Assembly (NCBI GenBank): GCA_048939765.1
Contig: JBHLPF010000037.1
Coordinates: 8,353 to 36,288 of the forward strand
Length of the DNA: 27,936 bases
Source: Promethearchaeota archaeon
Lineage (GTDB): Archaea > Asgardarchaeota > Thorarchaeia > Thorarchaeales > Thorarchaeaceae
Reading direction: 5' to 3'
The position numbers and the translations under genes were made by a program. The notes below the pieces were generated by a model, which saw only the letters and a list, made by a program, of their open reading frames with translations, was not told where the DNA came from and searched no databases. The first letter of the stretch is position 1, and each line of letters starts with the position of its first letter. Shown here piece after piece: positions 3 to 6,102 of this stretch.

Positions 3-776
3 TTCATGATGAACAGTATCATCACGTGTTTCATTTACTCCCAGCTGAAGAACAACAGCTGCGAGTTTCTCTTTATCCTCTTCTGCTTCAACAGACTTCT
101 CCAGGTCCAGAAGGATATTTCTGGATTCCTGAAACATTCCAAGCTCTGTAAGTACGCAGGAATAGTTAAACATCGTTTCAAATAGCAGATCCTGATTCGC
201 CATTCTTGCGGCGAGCTTAGAGAGTCGATTAAGTAGAACCTCAGCACCAACGAAGAAACCCTCTTCTATCAAGATGCTTGTGAGATAGTGCACTTCATGA
301 ATAGCAAGGGCAGTTGAAGCTTCATGCCCGCGCGAATGAATAGCGTCAAGTGTCATTGACACCTCGTCAATTATGAAAGGTAAGAGAGGCCTCAGATTGA
401 GATTCAATGCAGATGTGACGGAATAGGAAAGTTGGCCCAAGATATCAAGCAATTGGGGAATTGCCTCAATGTCGGGCAGGAGTTCTGTTTCACTTCGACG
501 GAAGGCATTTGTGTATCGAACATCCAAAAGAGCGAGCATCTCTGGAAGGATACGATTCTCTTTGAATGAAAGACGGACCGTCAATTCCGTGAGTTTGGCG
601 CTCGCCAACCCAGGCCTTCGTAAGATAATCTCCTCGAGAACACGTGCAATCTCAAACAGTAGCTCGTTTTCAGATGTATTGCCTATTGCTAGATTCTGAA
701 TCGCTGAGAGACCGTCATCAAGAGACAACGACGCACATAATACATCTCTCAGTGTGACAATCAGCAATGACTCCAC
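3..776 (-). CDS. Partial (runs off the left edge) alpha-helical, TPR-like protein
   Basis: Not in the ORF track; translated by hand. GTG at 776-774 is preceded by a GAGGAG Shine-Dalgarno, and the frame stays open to the window start (VESLLIVTLRDVL...FFVGAEVLLNRLSKLAARMANQDLLFETMFNYSCVLTELGMFQESRNILLDLEK...). The Leu/Ala/Glu-rich helical pattern is TPR-like. Confidence 0.7.
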   Translation of the reverse strand, partial: MESLLIVTLRDVLCASLSLDDGLSAIQNLAIGNTSENELLFEIARVLEEIILRRPGLASAKLTELTVRLSFKENRILPEMLALLDVRYTNAFRRSETELLPDIEAIPQLLDILGQLSYSVTSALNLNLRPLLPFIIDEVSMTLDAIHSRGHEASTALAIHEVHYLTSILIEEGFFVGAEVLLNRLSKLAARMANQDLLFETMFNYSCVLTELGMFQESRNILLDLEKSVEAEEDKEKLAAVVLQLGVNETRDDTVHHE

Positions 777-849: not shown

Positions 850-1560
850 TCATTCTAGAACGAAGTCATTCCAGACCCTAGATGTGTCTGTGCCTCGCAT
901 TCTCTCCATTCTAACCTTGTAATTGGGTGTATCACCCTCATCATCAATCTTGAAGCGAAGGACCGCATCCGCCATGTAAGAGAATGTTGCGTAAATCTTC
1001 TCTTCATGGACACCTTCCTCAAGAATAAACATGATACTATGAGAACTCTCCGTGACTCGGCCGCTGAGCCTTTGAACTGCTCTTGGCATCGTAGCTGGAT
1101 TGGAATGAAGAATGAGTGTTGATAGACTATCAACAACAACTCGAGCAACAACAAGTTCATCCAAGACCTCAGAAAGCACAATTCCTAGCTCACTGATATC
1201 GTCAACTTTGGCGAGAGAGTGAGCGGTGCTAGATTTGGGAGCACCCATGCGTTCGGAGTAGCCATCGATGAATACAAACTGGCCGGAATGTTCAAACTCA
1301 TCAATGGACCATCCATGGCGGCTCATATCATTCCTAATGACTCTTGGAGAAACATCAGTTGTCACAAAGACTGCTGGAAATCCAAGCCTGAGGCCGTCAT
1401 AGAGGAAGGCTTCAGCGTAGGTCGTCTTCCCAGAGCCCAAAGGACCAAGAAGAATATACGAAACCTGAGTGAGCTGGCCAAATTTGACCAGATCCCCGAT
1501 CATTGGCCGTGCAGTGGCCGGTGGGGGTTCAGTGGCTTTCGACTTTGTTTCTTCTCCCAA
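850..1560 (-). CDS. Single-domain KaiC/RAD55-family RecA-superfamily ATPase (degenerate catalytic EE)
   Basis: Walker A GPLGSGKT; VFVTTDVSP in place of the KaiC 'TFEE' motif; Walker B VVVDS; SYMADAVL; MERMRG arginine-finger motif. Confidence 0.85.
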   Translation of the reverse strand: MGEETKSKATEPPPATARPMIGDLVKFGQLTQVSYILLGPLGSGKTTYAEAFLYDGLRLGFPAVFVTTDVSPRVIRNDMSRHGWSIDEFEHSGQFVFIDGYSERMGAPKSSTAHSLAKVDDISELGIVLSEVLDELVVARVVVDSLSTLILHSNPATMPRAVQRLSGRVTESSHSIMFILEEGVHEEKIYATFSYMADAVLRFKIDDEGDTPNYKVRMERMRGTDTSRVWNDFVLE

Positions 1561-1586
1561 TAGTCACGCCTCAAGTTCTATAGATT

Positions 1587-2336
1587 CTATACTCCAGTAC
1601 TGATTTCCGCTGGCCATACTCTGATGCCTTCATCCGTTATCCTCATCGAGTGGATTCGTGAGCTGTGTTTTGAACCTCGGAGTTTCAATATCTCTATTGA
1701 TCGTGACCTTGATGTATCGCTGATCATCTCATTGTAGAGTACAATGACACCACTGGCCAAGAATGCTTCGATGTCAAACACACCGAGACCACCATCATGT
1801 TGTGCCGGAATCTCACTTGTAAGGATTAGTGTTGTATCTGCACGCGTTATGTTGGCGGCAAGCTTGAAGAACTCTTCGCGGAGGATGTCACGGCTCCGAA
1901 ACTTATAGGCTAGAATCGTAAGTGTATCAATCACGACTCTCTTGGCACCCAGCTTGTTCACATGATTGAGGATTATTGCTTCCAAGCCTGAGAGGTCAAA
2001 GCTTGGATACTCACCGATCTTCATCGGAGTGACCTCCTTGGACGGAGACAGGTCTACGATAGCCAACTTCTTCTTCTTCACCAGTGCATCGAGGTCCATT
2101 CCAAATCGCATCATGTTTCTCTTGATTGAATCCGGAGATTCTTCCAGGGTCACAAGAACTCCTGGCTCATTATACTGGGTTGCACCATTATACAGGAACT
2201 GATTTGCCATGATACTCTTTCCCGTACCTGCTCGACCTGCGATGAGGATCGTATCACCTTTTGGGAATCCTCCCTCAATTAGCTCATCCAATCCTTGAAT
2301 CCCAGTCTTTACTCTCTCTATAGTGAAATCGCTCAC
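1587..2336 (-). CDS. kaiC: Single-domain KaiC-family ATPase, strongly resembling the KaiC CI domain
   Basis: TGIQGLDELIEGGFPKG, Walker A GRAGTGKS, QFLYNG...EPGVLVTLEESP, DLSP...FDLSGL, RVVIDT, RSIEILKLRGSKH. Confidence 0.85.
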   Translation of the reverse strand: MSDFTIERVKTGIQGLDELIEGGFPKGDTILIAGRAGTGKSIMANQFLYNGATQYNEPGVLVTLEESPDSIKRNMMRFGMDLDALVKKKKLAIVDLSPSKEVTPMKIGEYPSFDLSGLEAIILNHVNKLGAKRVVIDTLTILAYKFRSRDILREEFFKLAANITRADTTLILTSEIPAQHDGGLGVFDIEAFLASGVIVLYNEMISDTSRSRSIEILKLRGSKHSSRIHSMRITDEGIRVWPAEISTGV

Positions 2337-2671
2337 TTTGATTCACCTCTCTTGGAAGTCACTTTCGCTCCCAGAATCATCTTCATTATCATATCAGGCT
2401 CTGGAATTCCCGTCACTGAAACACCACCAATCATTGTAGTTGGGAGTGCGAATATTCCAAACTCCTCTGCAGCTTCGGGATTCTCACTCACATTAATGAC
2501 CTTGAGAGAGAAAAGCCCTCCTCCGAAATCGGTCAGGGTTTCTCTCAGAACCTCTTCAGCCCTAGGGCAGAATGCACATGTATCGGACTTGAATAGGACT
2601 ACCTCAACGGTATCGTCATCTTCTTCGTCCTCCCCATTCAGGGAGTCCTTTGGTTCTGCTTTTTCAGCCAA
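2333..2671 (-). CDS. Thioredoxin-fold redox protein (CAFC), MJ0307/MTH807-type with KaiB-like segment
   Basis: CxxC (CAFCP), then LKVINVSENPEAAEEFGIFALPT with the cis-Pro motif; acidic N-terminal extension; 4-bp overlap with the downstream kaiC. Confidence 0.85.
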   Translation of the reverse strand: MAEKAEPKDSLNGEDEEDDDTVEVVLFKSDTCAFCPRAEEVLRETLTDFGGGLFSLKVINVSENPEAAEEFGIFALPTTMIGGVSVTGIPEPDMIMKMILGAKVTSKRGESK

Positions 2672-2721
2672 ATAATGGCACTCCTGAGCCTAGAGATATC
2701 AGGGTGAAGCAGTAGAATCAA

Positions 2722-2733
2722 CTTAATAGTTTT
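2722..2733 (-). promoter_or_regulatory. Putative BRE-TATA promoter of the trx-kaiC-kaiC unit
   Basis: Minus-strand AAAACTATTAAG about 50 nt upstream of the TTG start at 2671; AGGAG Shine-Dalgarno just upstream of the start. Confidence 0.45.
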
Positions 2734-2764
2734 GACGACCTAGTAAGGTGGCCAAGGTCTATAA

Positions 2765-3154
2765 TCATCGATACCTCAGTATCTTACGAATCTTGGTTGC
2801 AGCCTTACCTACAGCTCTTGAGTGATAACGCACATTCCTAGGCATTATCGTCCCAAGTATCAATGCCTGGGTCCCTTGAGATGAAATCCTTCTAAACACT
2901 GCTTTGCCTTCTGAACATCGAACGGATATATCCTTAGTTTCTCCAAGGGAGAGCTCATTTCTCACCCGTTCTACTGTGTCTGCAATATGACCAGCCATTG
3001 CAGCCACCACATCGATGTTGGTTGTCGGTGACACTGCATAAGCCATGACCAATCCGTCATCTCTAGCAAGGACTGATGTTGTAAATCCGCCCTCCTTATT
3101 CATTTCCTCTAACGTTTCAGTCAACGCTCGATAATCCGGACGCTCCGAGGTCAT
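2765..3154 (-). CDS. Roadblock/LC7 (MglB/LAMTOR-like) domain protein
   Basis: 129 aa; helix, then SVLARDDGLVMA, VAAMA, ELSLGETKDISV: the typical Roadblock pattern. Confidence 0.88.
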   Translation of the reverse strand: MTSERPDYRALTETLEEMNKEGGFTTSVLARDDGLVMAYAVSPTTNIDVVAAMAGHIADTVERVRNELSLGETKDISVRCSEGKAVFRRISSQGTQALILGTIMPRNVRYHSRAVGKAATKIRKILRYR

Positions 3155-3337: not shown

Positions 3338-3886
3338 ATGCCGAGAGAGTATCGCCTGAAAATCGTCATGCTAGGTGATGGTGCAGTAGGAAAGACAGCA
3401 CTGACAATTAGATTCACCGAAGGGGGATTTGAGGCGGACTATAAGAGGACCATTGGCGCCGACTTCGCCCTTAAGGGAATTGAACTTAAGGACCTGGATG
3501 CTAATGTCACATGCATTGTTTGGGATCTCGCCGGCCAGCCTCGTTTCGAGTCAGTCCGCCAGGGTTTCTATCGAGGAGCTCGTGGAGGGCTTTTGGTGTA
3601 TGATGTAACCCGCCGTCGTACATTTCTCAATATCGACGATTGGAAGAATGAATGTTTCACCAATCTTGGAAATCCAATTCCGCTTGTAGTTGTGGCCAAC
3701 AAAGTAGACCTCGAAGACAGCCGCGTGGTGTCTAGAGAGGAAGGAACGGAGTACGCTAAGAACCACAATTTCCTGTATGTTGAGTCGAGTGCACTCACAG
3801 GTGAGAACGTAGAGGAGGCATACGCCACTCTTTGCAGAAGGGTTCTAACTGAGGGAAATGAAAGGGTGAGAAACAACAAAGGGTAA
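3338..3886 (+). CDS. Rab-like small GTPase (Ras superfamily)
   Basis: G1 GDGAVGKT, G2 T in YKRTIGADF, G3 WDLAGQ, G4 NKVD, G5 ESSAL; RabF-like IGADF, FYRGA and LVYDVT; no C-terminal prenylation Cys. Confidence 0.93.
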   Translation: MPREYRLKIVMLGDGAVGKTALTIRFTEGGFEADYKRTIGADFALKGIELKDLDANVTCIVWDLAGQPRFESVRQGFYRGARGGLLVYDVTRRRTFLNIDDWKNECFTNLGNPIPLVVVANKVDLEDSRVVSREEGTEYAKNHNFLYVESSALTGENVEEAYATLCRRVLTEGNERVRNNKG

Positions 3887-4027: not shown

Positions 4028-5230
4028 ATGTCAGACAAGAATGGCAAGTCATCGACTCAACAGCCTGATAGCGTTCCCATGCGTGGCTTGAAGAGAGCTG
4101 CAGGCCGGCTATTCAAACCGAAAGAGGACAAACTCAAGAAGGTACTATCAACACTTTCATCGATTCAGGCCTGCAAGGATGCAGCCATTACTGGCGAGGA
4201 GGAGTTGAGGCTTCTTGCAGTCTGCAGACTGGGAGACTATGGTTCGAAGTCATTTGATACCCTGGACATAACCTTGAATGACGAGAGCAAAGTCATTCGA
4301 GCGATGACTGCAGGAGTGCTCGCTACAATAGAGGATAATAGAGCGATACCGATTCTTGAAGCCCACGCGTCTGACGATGATGAGATAGTGAGAGAGGCTA
4401 TCGGCTTTGCATTGGAATGGTTAGAGAATCGTGGTCATGAAGTTGAAGATGAACTCCTAATCCCTGAAAAGTCATCTGAGGAAGAGCAGATTGTCGAGTC
4501 TACACCAATTCGAACGAGTGATGATGTTCTTGTTACAAATGGGTACCAAGTATCCAACTCTAGACTGCTATTCAGAAGCATCATAGTCAACAAATCTACT
4601 GAAGCAATTTCGAACGTTACTGTCAGAATCATGTCATTTCCTGCAGACAGCCTCTTAGCTCCATATGCGGATACGCAGATAATTCCTTCAATTGAATCAG
4701 GCAAATCGAACTCAGTTGAGTTCGAATTCTTCGTTAACTCGGAGGCAATTGAAGGTGAAATAGTATCTTCAGTGATCTTCGTGAATGGTAATGACGAAAA
4801 GATTGCTGCAAAATCAGGCATTTGCTTCATCAGGTCAATATATTCTCAGATTGAGCCATTTGAGATGACCGCGGATGAGTTTCAAGCAATGAAGAAAGGG
4901 AAGAATACATGGAATCGAGAACATGTCATTGAGGTCGAGGCAAATACCCTCTACAAACTAGTGAAGAAATTGGCCAAACGATATAATCTCCACTCCTTCA
5001 GAGCAGAATCAAAAACAAAAGAGGGAATGCTAATGGGAGTTGTTGCTGGTGCAGGAATAGGGAAGTTCAGCGACGCCCGTTTGGCTGTCACAATAACTCT
5101 CGTCGGGAAGGTCGGTGAAGGAATCTCAAAGGTCAGAATTGATGTAATGTCAGATGACTCGGAATTAATTCAAATAGCTGCAAGCGAGTTCTTTGAACGA
5201 CTGCAAATTGAGATTCAGGTTATTGAATGA
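4028..5230 (+). CDS. HEAT-repeat protein with C-terminal coatomer/adaptin appendage-like (Ig sandwich plus platform) domain
   Basis: HEAT repeats (LNDESKVIRAMTAGVLA; ASDDDEIVREAIGFAL), an acidic linker, an Ig-like segment (IVNKSTEAISNVTV...IESGKSNSVEFEF), then IEPFEMTADEFQAM and VRIDVMSDD, resembling the beta-COP/alpha-adaptin appendage. Confidence 0.7.
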   Translation: MSDKNGKSSTQQPDSVPMRGLKRAAGRLFKPKEDKLKKVLSTLSSIQACKDAAITGEEELRLLAVCRLGDYGSKSFDTLDITLNDESKVIRAMTAGVLATIEDNRAIPILEAHASDDDEIVREAIGFALEWLENRGHEVEDELLIPEKSSEEEQIVESTPIRTSDDVLVTNGYQVSNSRLLFRSIIVNKSTEAISNVTVRIMSFPADSLLAPYADTQIIPSIESGKSNSVEFEFFVNSEAIEGEIVSSVIFVNGNDEKIAAKSGICFIRSIYSQIEPFEMTADEFQAMKKGKNTWNREHVIEVEANTLYKLVKKLAKRYNLHSFRAESKTKEGMLMGVVAGAGIGKFSDARLAVTITLVGKVGEGISKVRIDVMSDDSELIQIAASEFFERLQIEIQVIE

Positions 5231-5236
5231 CATAAC

Positions 5237-6040
5237 CTACTGACCTAGAAGCTTCAATAGCGTCACTTCGCTGAGAAGACCTAGCTTTTCTGCAATGCCT
5301 TCAACAGCGAGAAGTGCAGGCGAATGGTCGGGCAGATCAAAAACAGGCTTACCCAGATAATTCAATTCTGCTACTTTATCATCGTTTGGAATCATGCCTG
5401 CAAGAAAGAGTTCATTCTCCTCCAGTCCATTTGAAACAGCTTCAACAAGATTTGTCGGAATCCGATTACCAATCACTACAAGCTTCTTGAAGTCAATATG
5501 CACCTCCTTCGCGAGGTCTCTTATTCGCAGGGCTGCTTCAAAGGCAGCTCGGGAGGAGTCAATGACTATAATGAGAATGTCGACATTTCGATTGGTACGA
5601 CGACTGAAATGCTCGAGACCTGCGCTCATATCAAGTAGAGTAATCTCATAATTCAAGGTCAGAGTGTCGAGAATCTGTGTGAGGATTCTGTTGACATAGC
5701 AGTAGCATCCTTCACCTTCTGTGCGACCCATTGCCAAGAAATCATATCGGTCGCCTTCAATGAGAGCCTCGAAGATCTCTCCTTCAAGAATGTCTTGTTT
5801 CGCTGCAGAGGCAGGTAGAGTTCCGTCATCAATGTTTTTCCGCATCCTGGTGGCAATTTCCCCAACTGATGCTGGAATATCGACTCCCATAGCTCGAGGG
5901 AGATTCATCACAGGGTCTGCATCAACCAGAAGCAATGACCGTTGGGTCTTCTCTGCAATAGTTCTGGATAGGAGTCCGGCGGTGGTGGTCTTTCCAACGC
6001 CACCTTTTCCGGATACTGATATCACTAGACGCTCTTTCAT
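5237..6040 (-). CDS. cooC: CODH/ACS nickel-insertion ATPase CooC/AcsF
   Basis: SGKGGVGKT, LVDADP, GEGCYC nickel-binding CxC, DMSAGLEH. Start set at ATG 6040 (MKERLV) behind a GGAG site. Confidence 0.9.
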   Translation of the reverse strand: MKERLVISVSGKGGVGKTTTAGLLSRTIAEKTQRSLLLVDADPVMNLPRAMGVDIPASVGEIATRMRKNIDDGTLPASAAKQDILEGEIFEALIEGDRYDFLAMGRTEGEGCYCYVNRILTQILDTLTLNYEITLLDMSAGLEHFSRRTNRNVDILIIVIDSSRAAFEAALRIRDLAKEVHIDFKKLVVIGNRIPTNLVEAVSNGLEENELFLAGMIPNDDKVAELNYLGKPVFDLPDHSPALLAVEGIAEKLGLLSEVTLLKLLGQ

Positions 6041-6102
6041 TCTTCTTACTCCCAATAGGAAAGAGGGGCATTTTGCCCCTATGACCATTTAGGTATGGTA
6101 TC

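Follow-up and report, generated by a model that had tools for sequence, protein, structure and literature searches.

A cluster of archaeal genes in which a small thioredoxin precedes two KaiC-family ATPases raises the question of whether it encodes a cyanobacterial-type clock in separate pieces or a signaling module of another kind. The cluster lies within a window of 27,936 nucleotides, the whole stretch of DNA analyzed here, from a Thorarchaeia genome (contig JBHLPF010000037.1, positions 8,353 to 36,288). A preliminary description had read the three genes as separately encoded counterparts of KaiB and of the CI and CII domains of KaiC. Our analysis indicates that the module looks like a redox-linked signaling switch and not like a cyanobacterial clock split in two.

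Layout and conservation of the gene cluster

The genes for the thioredoxin (Trx, 112 aa; 2333..2671), KaiC1 (249 aa; 1587..2336) and KaiC2 (236 aa; 850..1560) are all located on the minus strand and are tightly linked, as had been described. Reading of the open reading frames gave a 4-bp GTGA start/stop overlap between Trx and KaiC1 and a gap of 26 nt between KaiC1 and KaiC2. The TATA-like element reported ahead of Trx was also present. On inspection of the Roadblock-Trx intergenic region (2672..2764, minus strand), the A/T-rich AAACTATTAAG was found at about 2722-2733, 51-62 nt before the Trx TTG start, as a candidate promoter element, and GGAG at 2680-2685, 9-14 nt 5′ of the same start, as a putative ribosome-binding site. 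The unit is larger than the three genes originally proposed, as a Roadblock gene 93 nt upstream and a large gene downstream are encoded on the same strand. The complete cluster has the order Roadblock–Trx–KaiC1–KaiC2–TPR-like protein and is divergent from the gene of a Rab-like small GTPase.

The Roadblock/LC7 protein (2765..3154, minus strand), encoded by the first co-oriented gene of the cluster, is LAMTOR2-like, with 27.0 bits against Pfam Robl_LC7 (cut-off 23) and weak matches to LAMTOR2 chains in the PDB (25 bits). The gene of the TPR-like protein (3..776, minus strand) runs off the window, so that the first 258 residues are seen of a protein of ∼770 aa in relatives; a full-length orthologue is encoded by a 781-aa frame in a relative's locus (L036:6845-9187). 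Its match to TPR_12 was weak (21.6 bits), and its closest ESM Atlas feature clusters were TPR proteins (score 0.94). The Rab-like GTPase (3338..3886, plus strand; Pfam Ras 168.5 bits) matched the crystallized ‘Thorarchaeota Rab’ (Thor-Rab; PDB 7EZB/7EZD/7EZE) with 286.8 bits over residues 1-174 and is, judged by this sequence match, its orthologue.

The preliminary description had asked for the trx-kaiC-kaiC order to be checked across genomes, and the order was found to be kept well beyond the source genome. The arrangement of Rab divergent from Roadblock-Trx-KaiC1-KaiC2-TPR was retained in 20 of 20 loci of relatives and in 64 of 64 species loci, in both sets up to the contig ends. Sixty-three of the species loci are of the Thorarchaeota type and one (L096) belongs to a neighboring family of the same order; the patterns of this search were tailored to the Thorarchaeota motif, and the wider distribution was obtained from separate searches. 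Roadblock was directly upstream of Trx in all 64 species loci, and wherever a Thorarchaeota contig extends far enough, the gene of the Rab-like GTPase was in the same place. The TPR-like gene followed KaiC2 in the Thorarchaeota species loci with a contig extending beyond KaiC2, and was not detected in L096, the single locus of the other family. The gene order was also kept in divergent lineages with the Trx motifs CPFC, CPHC or CVFC.

Linkage of Trx to KaiC was present in three further Asgard families, in which the other neighbors differed. The genomes G036 and G041 encode Trx (CGFC), KaiC1 and a RagA-like GTPase in this order, and G399 encodes Trx (CAFCP), KaiC1 and KaiC2. In family f5, a Trx with the motif CSWC was present in 29 of 31 genomes and was located directly after a fused active and degenerate KaiC in 11 of 12 loci, the twelfth ending at a contig end. 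Natural fusions of a Trx fold to a DUF7504-type KaiC were found in 12 clusters, with active KaiCs alongside, and the first Cys of the motif is lost in them (AAYC). The linkage elsewhere in Asgard archaea and these fusions are independent support for an association of Trx with KaiC. A 153-aa protein encoded 5′ of Trx in G036 and G041, suspected to have a longin or a Roadblock fold, gave no Pfam match; its AF2 model had a pLDDT of 38.

Identity of the thioredoxin and the two ATPases

KaiB is metamorphic: its ground state is a tetramer, and it switches fold to a thioredoxin-like state for binding. The preliminary description had assigned the role of KaiB to what it called a true thioredoxin, and the second half of this statement was confirmed. 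The Trx carries CAFC (2567-2578), a cis-Pro loop (ALPT) and a GIPEP loop, and both CAFC and LPT were conserved in the alignment. It scored 50.2 bits over the full length against TIGR00411 (equivalog cut-off 92.75) and, with 33.5 bits, exceeded the cut-off of 24.8 for Thioredoxin_3 (PF13192). The family profile matched 1FO5 in the PDB with 76.7 bits over the full length and 1NHO with 64.4 bits. The AF2 model (mean pLDDT 74) had the order beta-alpha-beta-alpha-beta-beta-alpha and showed a thioredoxin-like topology only; its best Foldseek matches were thioredoxins, and T7 polymerase-thioredoxin chains were among the matches listed. By these profiles, the Trx is a member of the MJ0307-type thioredoxin family and not an MJ0307 equivalog.

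The similarity to KaiB was partial and below cut-off. Against Pfam KaiB (PF07689, cut-off 27) the Trx scored 26.1 bits, with residues 40-78 aligned to positions 16-54 of the 82 in the model, and against NCBIfam KaiB (TIGR02654 / PRK09301) it scored 23 bits with cut-offs of 110-145. Some Trx orthologues reached 27-29 bits on the KaiB model, but just over positions ∼14-55, whereas true Asgard KaiBs reached 51-103 bits over positions 1-81; other Asgard thioredoxins, unlinked to KaiC, scored 27-34 bits. With a loose threshold, sub-cut-off matches to the KaiB model occurred in 10 of 14 control genomes, and only Synechococcus exceeded the cut-off. In hhalign, the Trx family scored 57.5 against Asgard KaiB and 145.8 against other Asgard thioredoxins, and the unlinked thioredoxins themselves scored 58.3 against KaiB. 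No KaiB was present among the 60 best of 165 PDB profile matches of the Trx family, nor among the 44 Foldseek matches listed for Trx (ranks 1-49). On the partial KaiB score, the hhalign comparison and the PDB profile and Foldseek matches, the assignment of Trx as a KaiB was rejected. It clusters with MJ0307-type thioredoxins, an outcome that the preliminary description had itself named among those that would speak against its reading. The segment FSLKVINVSENPEAAEEFGIFALPT, which had been called KaiB-like, does resemble KaiB, with 13 of 25 residues identical to an Asgard KaiB; as its identity with the MJ0307 thioredoxin 1FO5 is just as high (13 of 25), the resemblance is not specific to KaiB and reflects a common beta2-alpha2-beta3 motif of the fold.

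The CxxC was invariant in 16 of 16 aligned Trx members and in divergent lineages while its two middle residues varied, which suggests that the thiols themselves are under selection. The source genome encodes thioredoxin reductase homologues, and on another contig a thioredoxin reductase gene adjoins the gene of a two-domain Trx-fold protein, the two likely forming a general redox pair. Other Trx paralogues are encoded elsewhere in the source genome, and the Trx of the operon is a dedicated copy.

KaiC1 (Pfam KaiC 234.1 bits) has a Walker A motif (GRAGTGKS), the catalytic glutamate pair (TLEES), a Walker B motif (VVID) and the arginine in KLRG, and these motif residues were invariant in 18 orthologues. 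With 190.6 bits to the CI half and 68.1 bits to the CII half of a solved KaiC (8ZN5), it is a CI-like single-domain ATPase, in agreement with the earlier reading, and is predicted to be active. At 249 aa it falls short of circadian KaiC, which is a fused CI-CII protein of ∼500 aa with CII phosphosites and an A-loop; on the equivalog model (TIGR02655 / PRK09302, cut-off 408) it scored 211.9 bits, over positions 9-240 only. In the tree, KaiC1 grouped with other single-domain Asgard KaiCs (SH-aLRT 82), and this group stood beside the CI clade (SH-aLRT 99), not inside it.

The B-loop of KaiC1 spans residues 95-118 (DLSPSKEVTPMKIGEYPSFDLSGL; 1983..2054, minus strand) in the alignment to the CI B-loop. 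The part that had been taken for an insert at this position, SKEVTPMKIGEYPS, is the B-loop itself, longer by four residues than the 10 in the solved KaiC CI; as all compared single-domain Asgard KaiCs have a B-loop of this size, an insert was ruled out. F113-D114 of KaiC1 align with F122/D123 in the B-loop of KaiC CI, the substitution of which weakens the binding of KaiB and SasA (bioRxiv 10.1101/2020.06.17.158394). Single-domain Asgard KaiCs without a thioredoxin neighbor also have a B-loop with an F/Y-D motif, and its presence therefore does not mark out the pairing of Trx with KaiC1. Cysteines are absent from KaiC1 and KaiC2 in the source genome and in most orthologues, which rules out both proteins as classical disulfide substrates of Trx.

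KaiC2 scored 101.6 bits on Pfam KaiC (PF06745) and 38.2 bits on DUF7504 (PF24336, cut-off 27). It retains the P-loop (GPLGSGKT), the Walker B Asp and the Arg of RMRG, and has TTDVS in place of TLEES, with Asp and Val at the positions of the two catalytic Glu. The mean column identity in 16 orthologues was 69%, with T67, D69, D144 and R222 invariant. On this sequence evidence KaiC2 is a DUF7504-type KaiC family member with degenerate catalytic residues, and is predicted to be inactive. Its top PDB match was PH0284 (83.6 bits), and it scored 51.3 bits on the circadian KaiC model (TIGR02655 / PRK09302). The proposal that it corresponds to CII was rejected, since it was closer to the CI half of 8ZN5 (44.1 bits) than to the CII half (13.5 bits), retains a loop region that CII lacks, stands apart from CII in the tree, on a long branch, and has TTDVS instead of the glutamate pair. 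The sole hint of CII-type phosphosites was S194-Y195, which in a by-eye alignment falls at the position of CII S431-T432.

Predicted Trx-KaiC1 complex and possible roles of the module

The preliminary description had suggested docking of Trx on the CI-type B-loop, and complex prediction placed it there, with a score of 0.79 for Trx:KaiC1 and 0.00 for the best of three controls. Of 80 solved complexes, 58 reached the mark used for this score, as did 2 of 110 mismatched pairs; these counts are approximate because our own alignments were used. The model runs agreed in at least 98% of contacts, with a partner pLDDT of at least 76. In the modeled interface, KaiC1 residues 94-124, that is the B-loop including F113/D114, meet Trx residues 27-38, 61-91, 94 and 98, so that the active-site face of Trx (CxxC, cis-Pro loop and GIPEP loop) lies on the B-loop and the cysteines are within the interface. 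Twelve of the 13 invariant Trx residues are in this interface (hypergeometric P 1.8e-4), an enrichment confounded by active-site conservation, and the KaiC1 interface was not more conserved across lineages than the rest of the protein (0.76 vs 0.75). Because KaiC1 is so close to the solved KaiC CI, the pass of the model shows likeness and not binding, and the model may in part stem from recall of the solved structures of KaiB-CI and SasA-CI. The natural fusions join the Trx fold to a KaiC2-like and not to a KaiC1-like protein, and the direct partner of Trx could thus be KaiC2.

We consider that the chances are about even that the cluster represents, in its Thorarchaeota form, a conserved Asgard signaling operon in which Trx docks on the KaiC1 B-loop and a redox-gated KaiC1/KaiC2 switch results. 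Trx would be produced in step with KaiC1, for which the GTGA start/stop overlap counts, as it suggests translational coupling. Its active-site face would then dock on the B-loop, by analogy with KaiB in its switched fold and SasA's N-terminal thioredoxin-like domain on KaiC-CI, and its redox state would gate this binding, passing redox information into the ATPase hub. We infer gated binding from the exclusion of the KaiCs as disulfide substrates together with the position of the CxxC in the predicted interface. The Roadblock protein, the TPR scaffold and the Rab-like GTPase may carry the output; gating and output are both suggested by the gene neighborhood. It is distinctly unlikely, in our estimate, that Trx, KaiC1 and KaiC2 form a redox- and ATP-driven switch that controls, through the LAMTOR2-like Roadblock protein and the TPR scaffold, which nucleotide the Rab-like GTPase carries, as an Asgard forerunner of Ragulator/Rag-type signaling in which a thioredoxin that is still redox-active takes over the KaiB-style docking step. 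A bolder form of this reading would derive KaiB-type regulators from KaiC-docking thioredoxins, from CxxC Trx over Cys-deficient Trx::KaiC fusions to KaiB.

The same evidence was weighed against roles of Trx other than redox-gated docking. It is rather unlikely that Trx is an ordinary disulfide reductase which is co-transcribed with the KaiCs, acts on other Cys-bearing targets and does not dock on KaiC1. Such a role would be consistent with its MJ0307-type character in every sequence and fold test, its intact CxxC and cis-Pro and the reductase homologues in the genome, and the docking model could be a recall of KaiB-CI structures. Possible targets are the three Cys-containing products of neighboring genes, namely Rab-like GTPase, Roadblock protein and TPR-like protein, or unrelated proteins. 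Such a reductase role would not account for the linkage specifically to KaiC in four Asgard families with differing other neighbors, nor for the start/stop overlap with KaiC1; the loss of the first Cys in the Trx::KaiC fusions indicates that the fold works with KaiC without disulfide chemistry, and the reductase on the other contig likely has its general partner in the adjoining two-domain protein. The fusions, the docking score (with the same possibility of recall) and the binding of KaiB and SasA-N without redox chemistry would also suit a Trx that is a redox-independent structural or assembly subunit of the KaiC module, with the CxxC kept for stability or another role. E. coli thioredoxin is a subunit serving T7 DNA polymerase, and chains of this complex were among the fold matches of Trx. 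A subunit role is quite improbable, as the CxxC is invariant around variable middle residues and the cysteines lie within the predicted interface.

Very improbable is the clock reading, in which Trx acts as KaiB and KaiC1 and KaiC2 as CI and CII of a pre-fusion, KaiBC-like timer. The Trx-KaiC1-KaiC2 order does parallel kaiB-kaiC(CI-CII) of other Asgard genomes, KaiC1 is CI-like, the model places Trx at the B-loop, and S194-Y195 of KaiC2 can be aligned by eye with the CII phosphosites. Against it, Trx is no closer to KaiB in hhalign than unlinked thioredoxins are, KaiC2 is set apart from CII by scores, loop and tree and lacks the catalytic glutamates required for CII-type autokinase chemistry, and KaiC1 groups outside the CI clade, which leaves the proposed pre-fusion ancestor unsupported. 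Apart from the S194-Y195 hint no clock-specific feature was seen, KaiA is not present, and no double-domain KaiC was found in the source genome (88.5% complete). The Trx-KaiC1-KaiC2 module provides no evidence for an archaeal clock, and neither a clock nor a pre-fusion KaiC ancestry of the module is supported.

Relation to known systems and significance

Archaeal KaiC-like signaling hubs with inactivated KaiC paralogues have reportedly been described by Makarova, Galperin and Koonin in 2017. The module resembles such hubs in its active single-domain KaiC, its degenerate KaiC-like protein and its accessory input and output proteins. KaiC hubs with a Trx-fold partner are a known kind of arrangement, seen here in a new form. 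No description of a CxxC thioredoxin with KaiC1/KaiC2 beside Roadblock and Thor-Rab was found in the literature searched, which lay outside Makarova et al. 2017.

The CI B-loop is bound by KaiB and by SasA-N, each of which has a thioredoxin fold (bioRxiv 10.1101/2020.06.17.158394). As in these systems, the gene of a small thioredoxin-fold protein lies immediately 5′ of that of a KaiC ATPase, and docking of the protein, mainly via its C-terminal half, is predicted on a B-loop that includes the conserved F-D pair. In contrast to them, the protein is here a true MJ0307-type CxxC thioredoxin that misses the KaiB cut-offs and has its thiols in the predicted interface. Unlike circadian KaiC with its CI-CII fusion, KaiC1 is a single domain and the degenerate KaiC2 is separate, and the Thorarchaeota module shows no sign of a fold switch, of KaiA or of a histidine kinase. 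With MJ0307 and MtH895 (1FO5, 1NHO) the Trx shares full-length profile matches, CxxC, cis-Pro and the minimal fold; it differs from them in staying below the TIGR00411 equivalog cut-off, in an acidic N-terminal tail, in the family-specific conserved motifs FKS..CAFCP and GIPEP, and in its obligate linkage to KaiC genes. Bona fide Asgard kaiB-kaiC operons (L111-L120) likewise have a small thioredoxin-fold gene directly 5′ of a KaiC ATPase, but their KaiBs match the whole KaiB model and have no CxxC, and their partners are double-domain KaiCs of ∼500 aa. KaiB has been reported only alongside full-length KaiC (Schmelling et al., 2017).

If the docking is real, Trx would join KaiB and SasA-N as a third class of thioredoxin-fold proteins that bind the KaiC B-loop, and would be the first to keep its redox cysteines. 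The Trx-KaiC1 pair would then offer a direct and simple experimental approach to the way in which ordinary thioredoxins could give rise to KaiB-type regulation. In the study of Thor-Rab, the prediction of such regulator matches from genome arrangement is stated to be difficult (PMC10933270). The operon, situated beside a Roadblock gene and the orthologue of the only crystallized Thorarchaeota Rab, is a concrete candidate for an input acting upstream of an Asgard small-GTPase switch.

Gene cluster and its conservation

The three linked minus-strand genes of the preliminary description were found as reported, and its observation as a whole was largely confirmed. They encode a 112-aa thioredoxin (Trx, 2671..2333), a 249-aa KaiC-family ATPase (KaiC1, 2336..1587) and a second, 236-aa KaiC-family protein (KaiC2, 1560..850); GTGA is common to the end of Trx and the start of KaiC1, and KaiC1 and KaiC2 are spaced by 26 nt. 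A Roadblock/LC7 gene (3154..2765, minus) lies 93 nt upstream of Trx. Downstream of KaiC2, a large minus-strand gene, which is TPR-like and ∼770 aa in relatives, starts at 776 and runs out of the window. Divergent from the Roadblock gene is a small GTPase gene (3338-3886, plus), orthologous to the crystallized 'Thorarchaeota Rab' (7EZB, 286.8 bits), the gene neighborhood of which is not mentioned in the Thor-Rab paper (PMC10933270). A 400-aa HEAT-repeat protein (4028-5230, plus) is encoded directly downstream of the GTPase, and a MinD/ParA-type P-loop ATPase gene (5237-6088, minus) is convergent with it.

The order Rab (on the opposite strand), Roadblock-Trx-KaiC1-KaiC2-TPR was present, up to contig ends, in 20/20 loci of the family as well as in each of the 64 species-level loci from Thorarchaeota, which bears out synteny of trx-kaiC-kaiC as far as the contigs permit. 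This arrangement also occurred in another family of that taxonomic order (L021) and was kept in divergent lineages with CPFC, CPHC or CVFC thioredoxin motifs. A phylum-wide Trx profile scan of 400 Asgard genomes set three score groups apart: Thorarchaeota orthologues (121-182 bits), the thioredoxins of genomes G036/G041 (second family, 101-118 bits) and a single protein of genome G399 (77.6 bits), the score of which falls inside the range of generic thioredoxin domains (≤79 bits). The concept of KaiC hubs and inactivated KaiCs reportedly dates from 2017 work by Makarova et al. No description of a CxxC-Trx/KaiC1/KaiC2 module was found in the literature searched.

Identity of the thioredoxin and the KaiC proteins

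Trx had been proposed to act as KaiB. Its entire length aligned to the MJ0307 thioredoxin model (50.2 bits), and Thioredoxin_3 gave 33.5 bits, while the KaiB model scored 26.1 bits (cut-off 27) over 39/82 positions. The Trx family profile ranked 1FO5 (76.7 bits) and 1NHO at the top of its PDB matches, and KaiB was absent among the best 60 matches listed. The AF2 model of Trx showed a minimal thioredoxin topology (mean pLDDT 74), and nearly all of the 44 Foldseek matches listed were thioredoxins or thioredoxin-fold proteins, with KaiB absent among them. By hhalign, the KaiC-linked thioredoxin family scored 145.8 against other Asgard thioredoxins and 57.5 against Asgard KaiBs; other Asgard thioredoxins scored 58.3 against KaiB. 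Trx is therefore placed with the MJ0307 type, and its identity as KaiB is ruled out. The local likeness of its KaiB-like segment is real but not KaiB-specific: with 13/25 residues identical to an Asgard KaiB and also 13/25 to MJ0307, it is a common beta2-alpha2-beta3 motif. Other Asgard genomes do encode true KaiBs, whose genes immediately precede those of ∼500-aa double-domain KaiCs, and KaiB has been reported only together with full-length KaiC (Schmelling et al.). Bona fide kaiB-kaiC operons were seen in several of these genomes (L111:2762-6473, minus; L113-L120; KaiB 51-103 bits), and one genome (G160) has two tandem pairs.

KaiC1 and KaiC2 had been read as a split CI and CII. Against solved double-domain KaiC, KaiC1 scored 190.6 bits with CI and 68.1 bits with CII, and its Walker A, first catalytic Glu, Walker B Asp and the Arg of KLRG were invariant in 18 orthologues. 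The supposed insert in KaiC1 is the B-loop itself, four residues longer than the CI loop on which KaiB docks; such a loop was present in every single-domain Asgard KaiC compared, and CII domains are without it. KaiC2, with PH0284 as best PDB match (83.6 bits), has TTDVS at the site of KaiC1 TLEES, keeps the P-loop, Walker B Asp and an Arg, and is strongly conserved (mean column identity 69%). In a quick maximum-likelihood tree, KaiC1 grouped with other single-domain Asgard KaiCs (SH-aLRT 82), apart from the CI (99) and CII (97) clades, and KaiC2 formed a long branch that did not join CII. These positions therefore do not mark the two proteins as CI and CII or as ancestors of these. The CI-likeness of KaiC1 stands, but KaiC2 as CII is ruled out by its scores (44.1 bits to CI, 13.5 to CII), its retained loop region and its separate branch.

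Some KaiC1-like single-domain genes without a thioredoxin (L024, L026, L027, L028, L031) have a ∼180-aa protein upstream which, read by eye, looks like an Lrp/AsnC-type HTH regulator and would represent a different KaiC module.

Predicted docking of Trx on KaiC1

KaiC1 and KaiC2 have no cysteines in this genome or in most orthologues and therefore cannot be thiol-disulfide substrates of Trx. The proposed Trx:ATPase complex was modelled for KaiC1: with both proteins entered as alignments, the model scored 0.79 and the best of three controls 0.00. The mark was passed by 58/80 solved complexes and 2/110 mismatched pairs, counts that are approximate because our own alignments were used. Contact agreement between runs was at least 98% and partner pLDDT at least 76. 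The predicted interface comprised KaiC1 94-124, i.e., the B-loop, and, on Trx, residues 27-38 around the CxxC as well as most of the C-terminal half (61-91, 94, 98), with the tightest contacts between KaiC1 F113-G117 and Trx A75-P77. KaiC1 F113-D114 align with F122/D123 of the CI B-loop, substitutions of which weaken KaiB and SasA binding alike (bioRxiv 10.1101/2020.06.17.158394), and KaiB binds mainly via its C-terminal half. Since such complexes are already solved, the model may simply reproduce them, and its pass is evidence of likeness and not of binding. Of the 13 invariant Trx residues, 12 fell inside the predicted interface (P 1.8e-4), and these are active-site residues too; the KaiC1 side showed no such enrichment.

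The best-supported reading is that KaiC1 and KaiC2 form a hub with Trx as a dedicated, stoichiometric partner, predicted to dock on the B-loop. Binding would plausibly be gated by the redox state of Trx, and gene neighborhood and Trx-GTPase fusions suggest that output could pass to the TPR protein and to Roadblock and Rab as a pair. On another contig a thioredoxin reductase gene adjoins one that encodes a Trx-fold protein of two domains, and the genome holds further Trx paralogues, which fits a specialized role of the KaiC-linked Trx. The original interpretation is supported in part, by the CI-like KaiC1, the conserved gene order and the docking model. There is no support for a clock or for an ancestry that predates the CI-CII fusion: KaiC1 lies apart from the CI clade, KaiC2 is not CII and Trx is not KaiB. 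The CxxC-Trx/KaiC1/KaiC2 module is open to direct testing.

Linkages and fusions beyond Thorarchaeota

In G036/G041 a CGFC thioredoxin gene is immediately adjacent to a KaiC1-like gene, after which comes a RagA-like GTPase gene, and in G399 a CAFCP thioredoxin lies upstream of KaiC1-like and KaiC2-like genes, the latter with a GSGRT P-loop. Family f5 has a small CSWC thioredoxin in 29/31 genomes; in 11/12 fetched loci it directly follows a ∼474-aa protein in which an active KaiC domain is fused to a degenerate second one, and the remaining locus ends at a contig edge. A search of 1.84 billion representatives yielded only 63 clusters at E≤1e-10. It included a natural 316-aa fusion of a Trx fold to a DUF7504-type KaiC (12 clusters), in which the motif is AAYC, the first Cys being gone, and which is flanked by two active single-domain KaiC genes. 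MJ0307-type thioredoxin domains were also fused to small GTPases, as Ras::Trx (P0141, 282 aa, Heimdallarchaeota record) and Trx::Arf-like (P0108, 306 aa). As Trx fold, active KaiC and degenerate KaiC thus recur in three different arrangements, this is the strongest non-model evidence for joint function.

A conserved ∼153-aa protein without Pfam match precedes the G036/G041 genes (L102:4978-5439, minus; L023:3402-3860, plus), and a loosely similar 132-aa protein lies ahead of a KaiC in L030. Directly upstream of the G399 CAFCP thioredoxin is a monothiol thioredoxin-like gene (CSRS; L100:4674-5027, minus; Pfam Thioredoxin 18.9 bits, under cut-off). Asgard proteins of ∼670 aa combine, in this order, PAS, thioredoxin and HATPase_c histidine kinase domains (L099:3472-5508, plus; L110:3236-5242, minus; P0023; P0017); SasA likewise joins a Trx fold to a kinase, but its Trx fold is N-terminal. 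Family f20 had Trx-profile matches in 12/12 genomes, 11 of those listed in 558-703-aa frames, with the PAS-Trx-kinase architecture checked by Pfam on two proteins. Further proteins of ∼490-540 aa combine two V4R domains with a thioredoxin domain at the N-terminus (L104:3230-4777, minus; L106:4309-5916, plus; L105:4296-5759, plus; P0082), and in 2/3 of these loci the gene adjoins a Ras-like GTPase gene.
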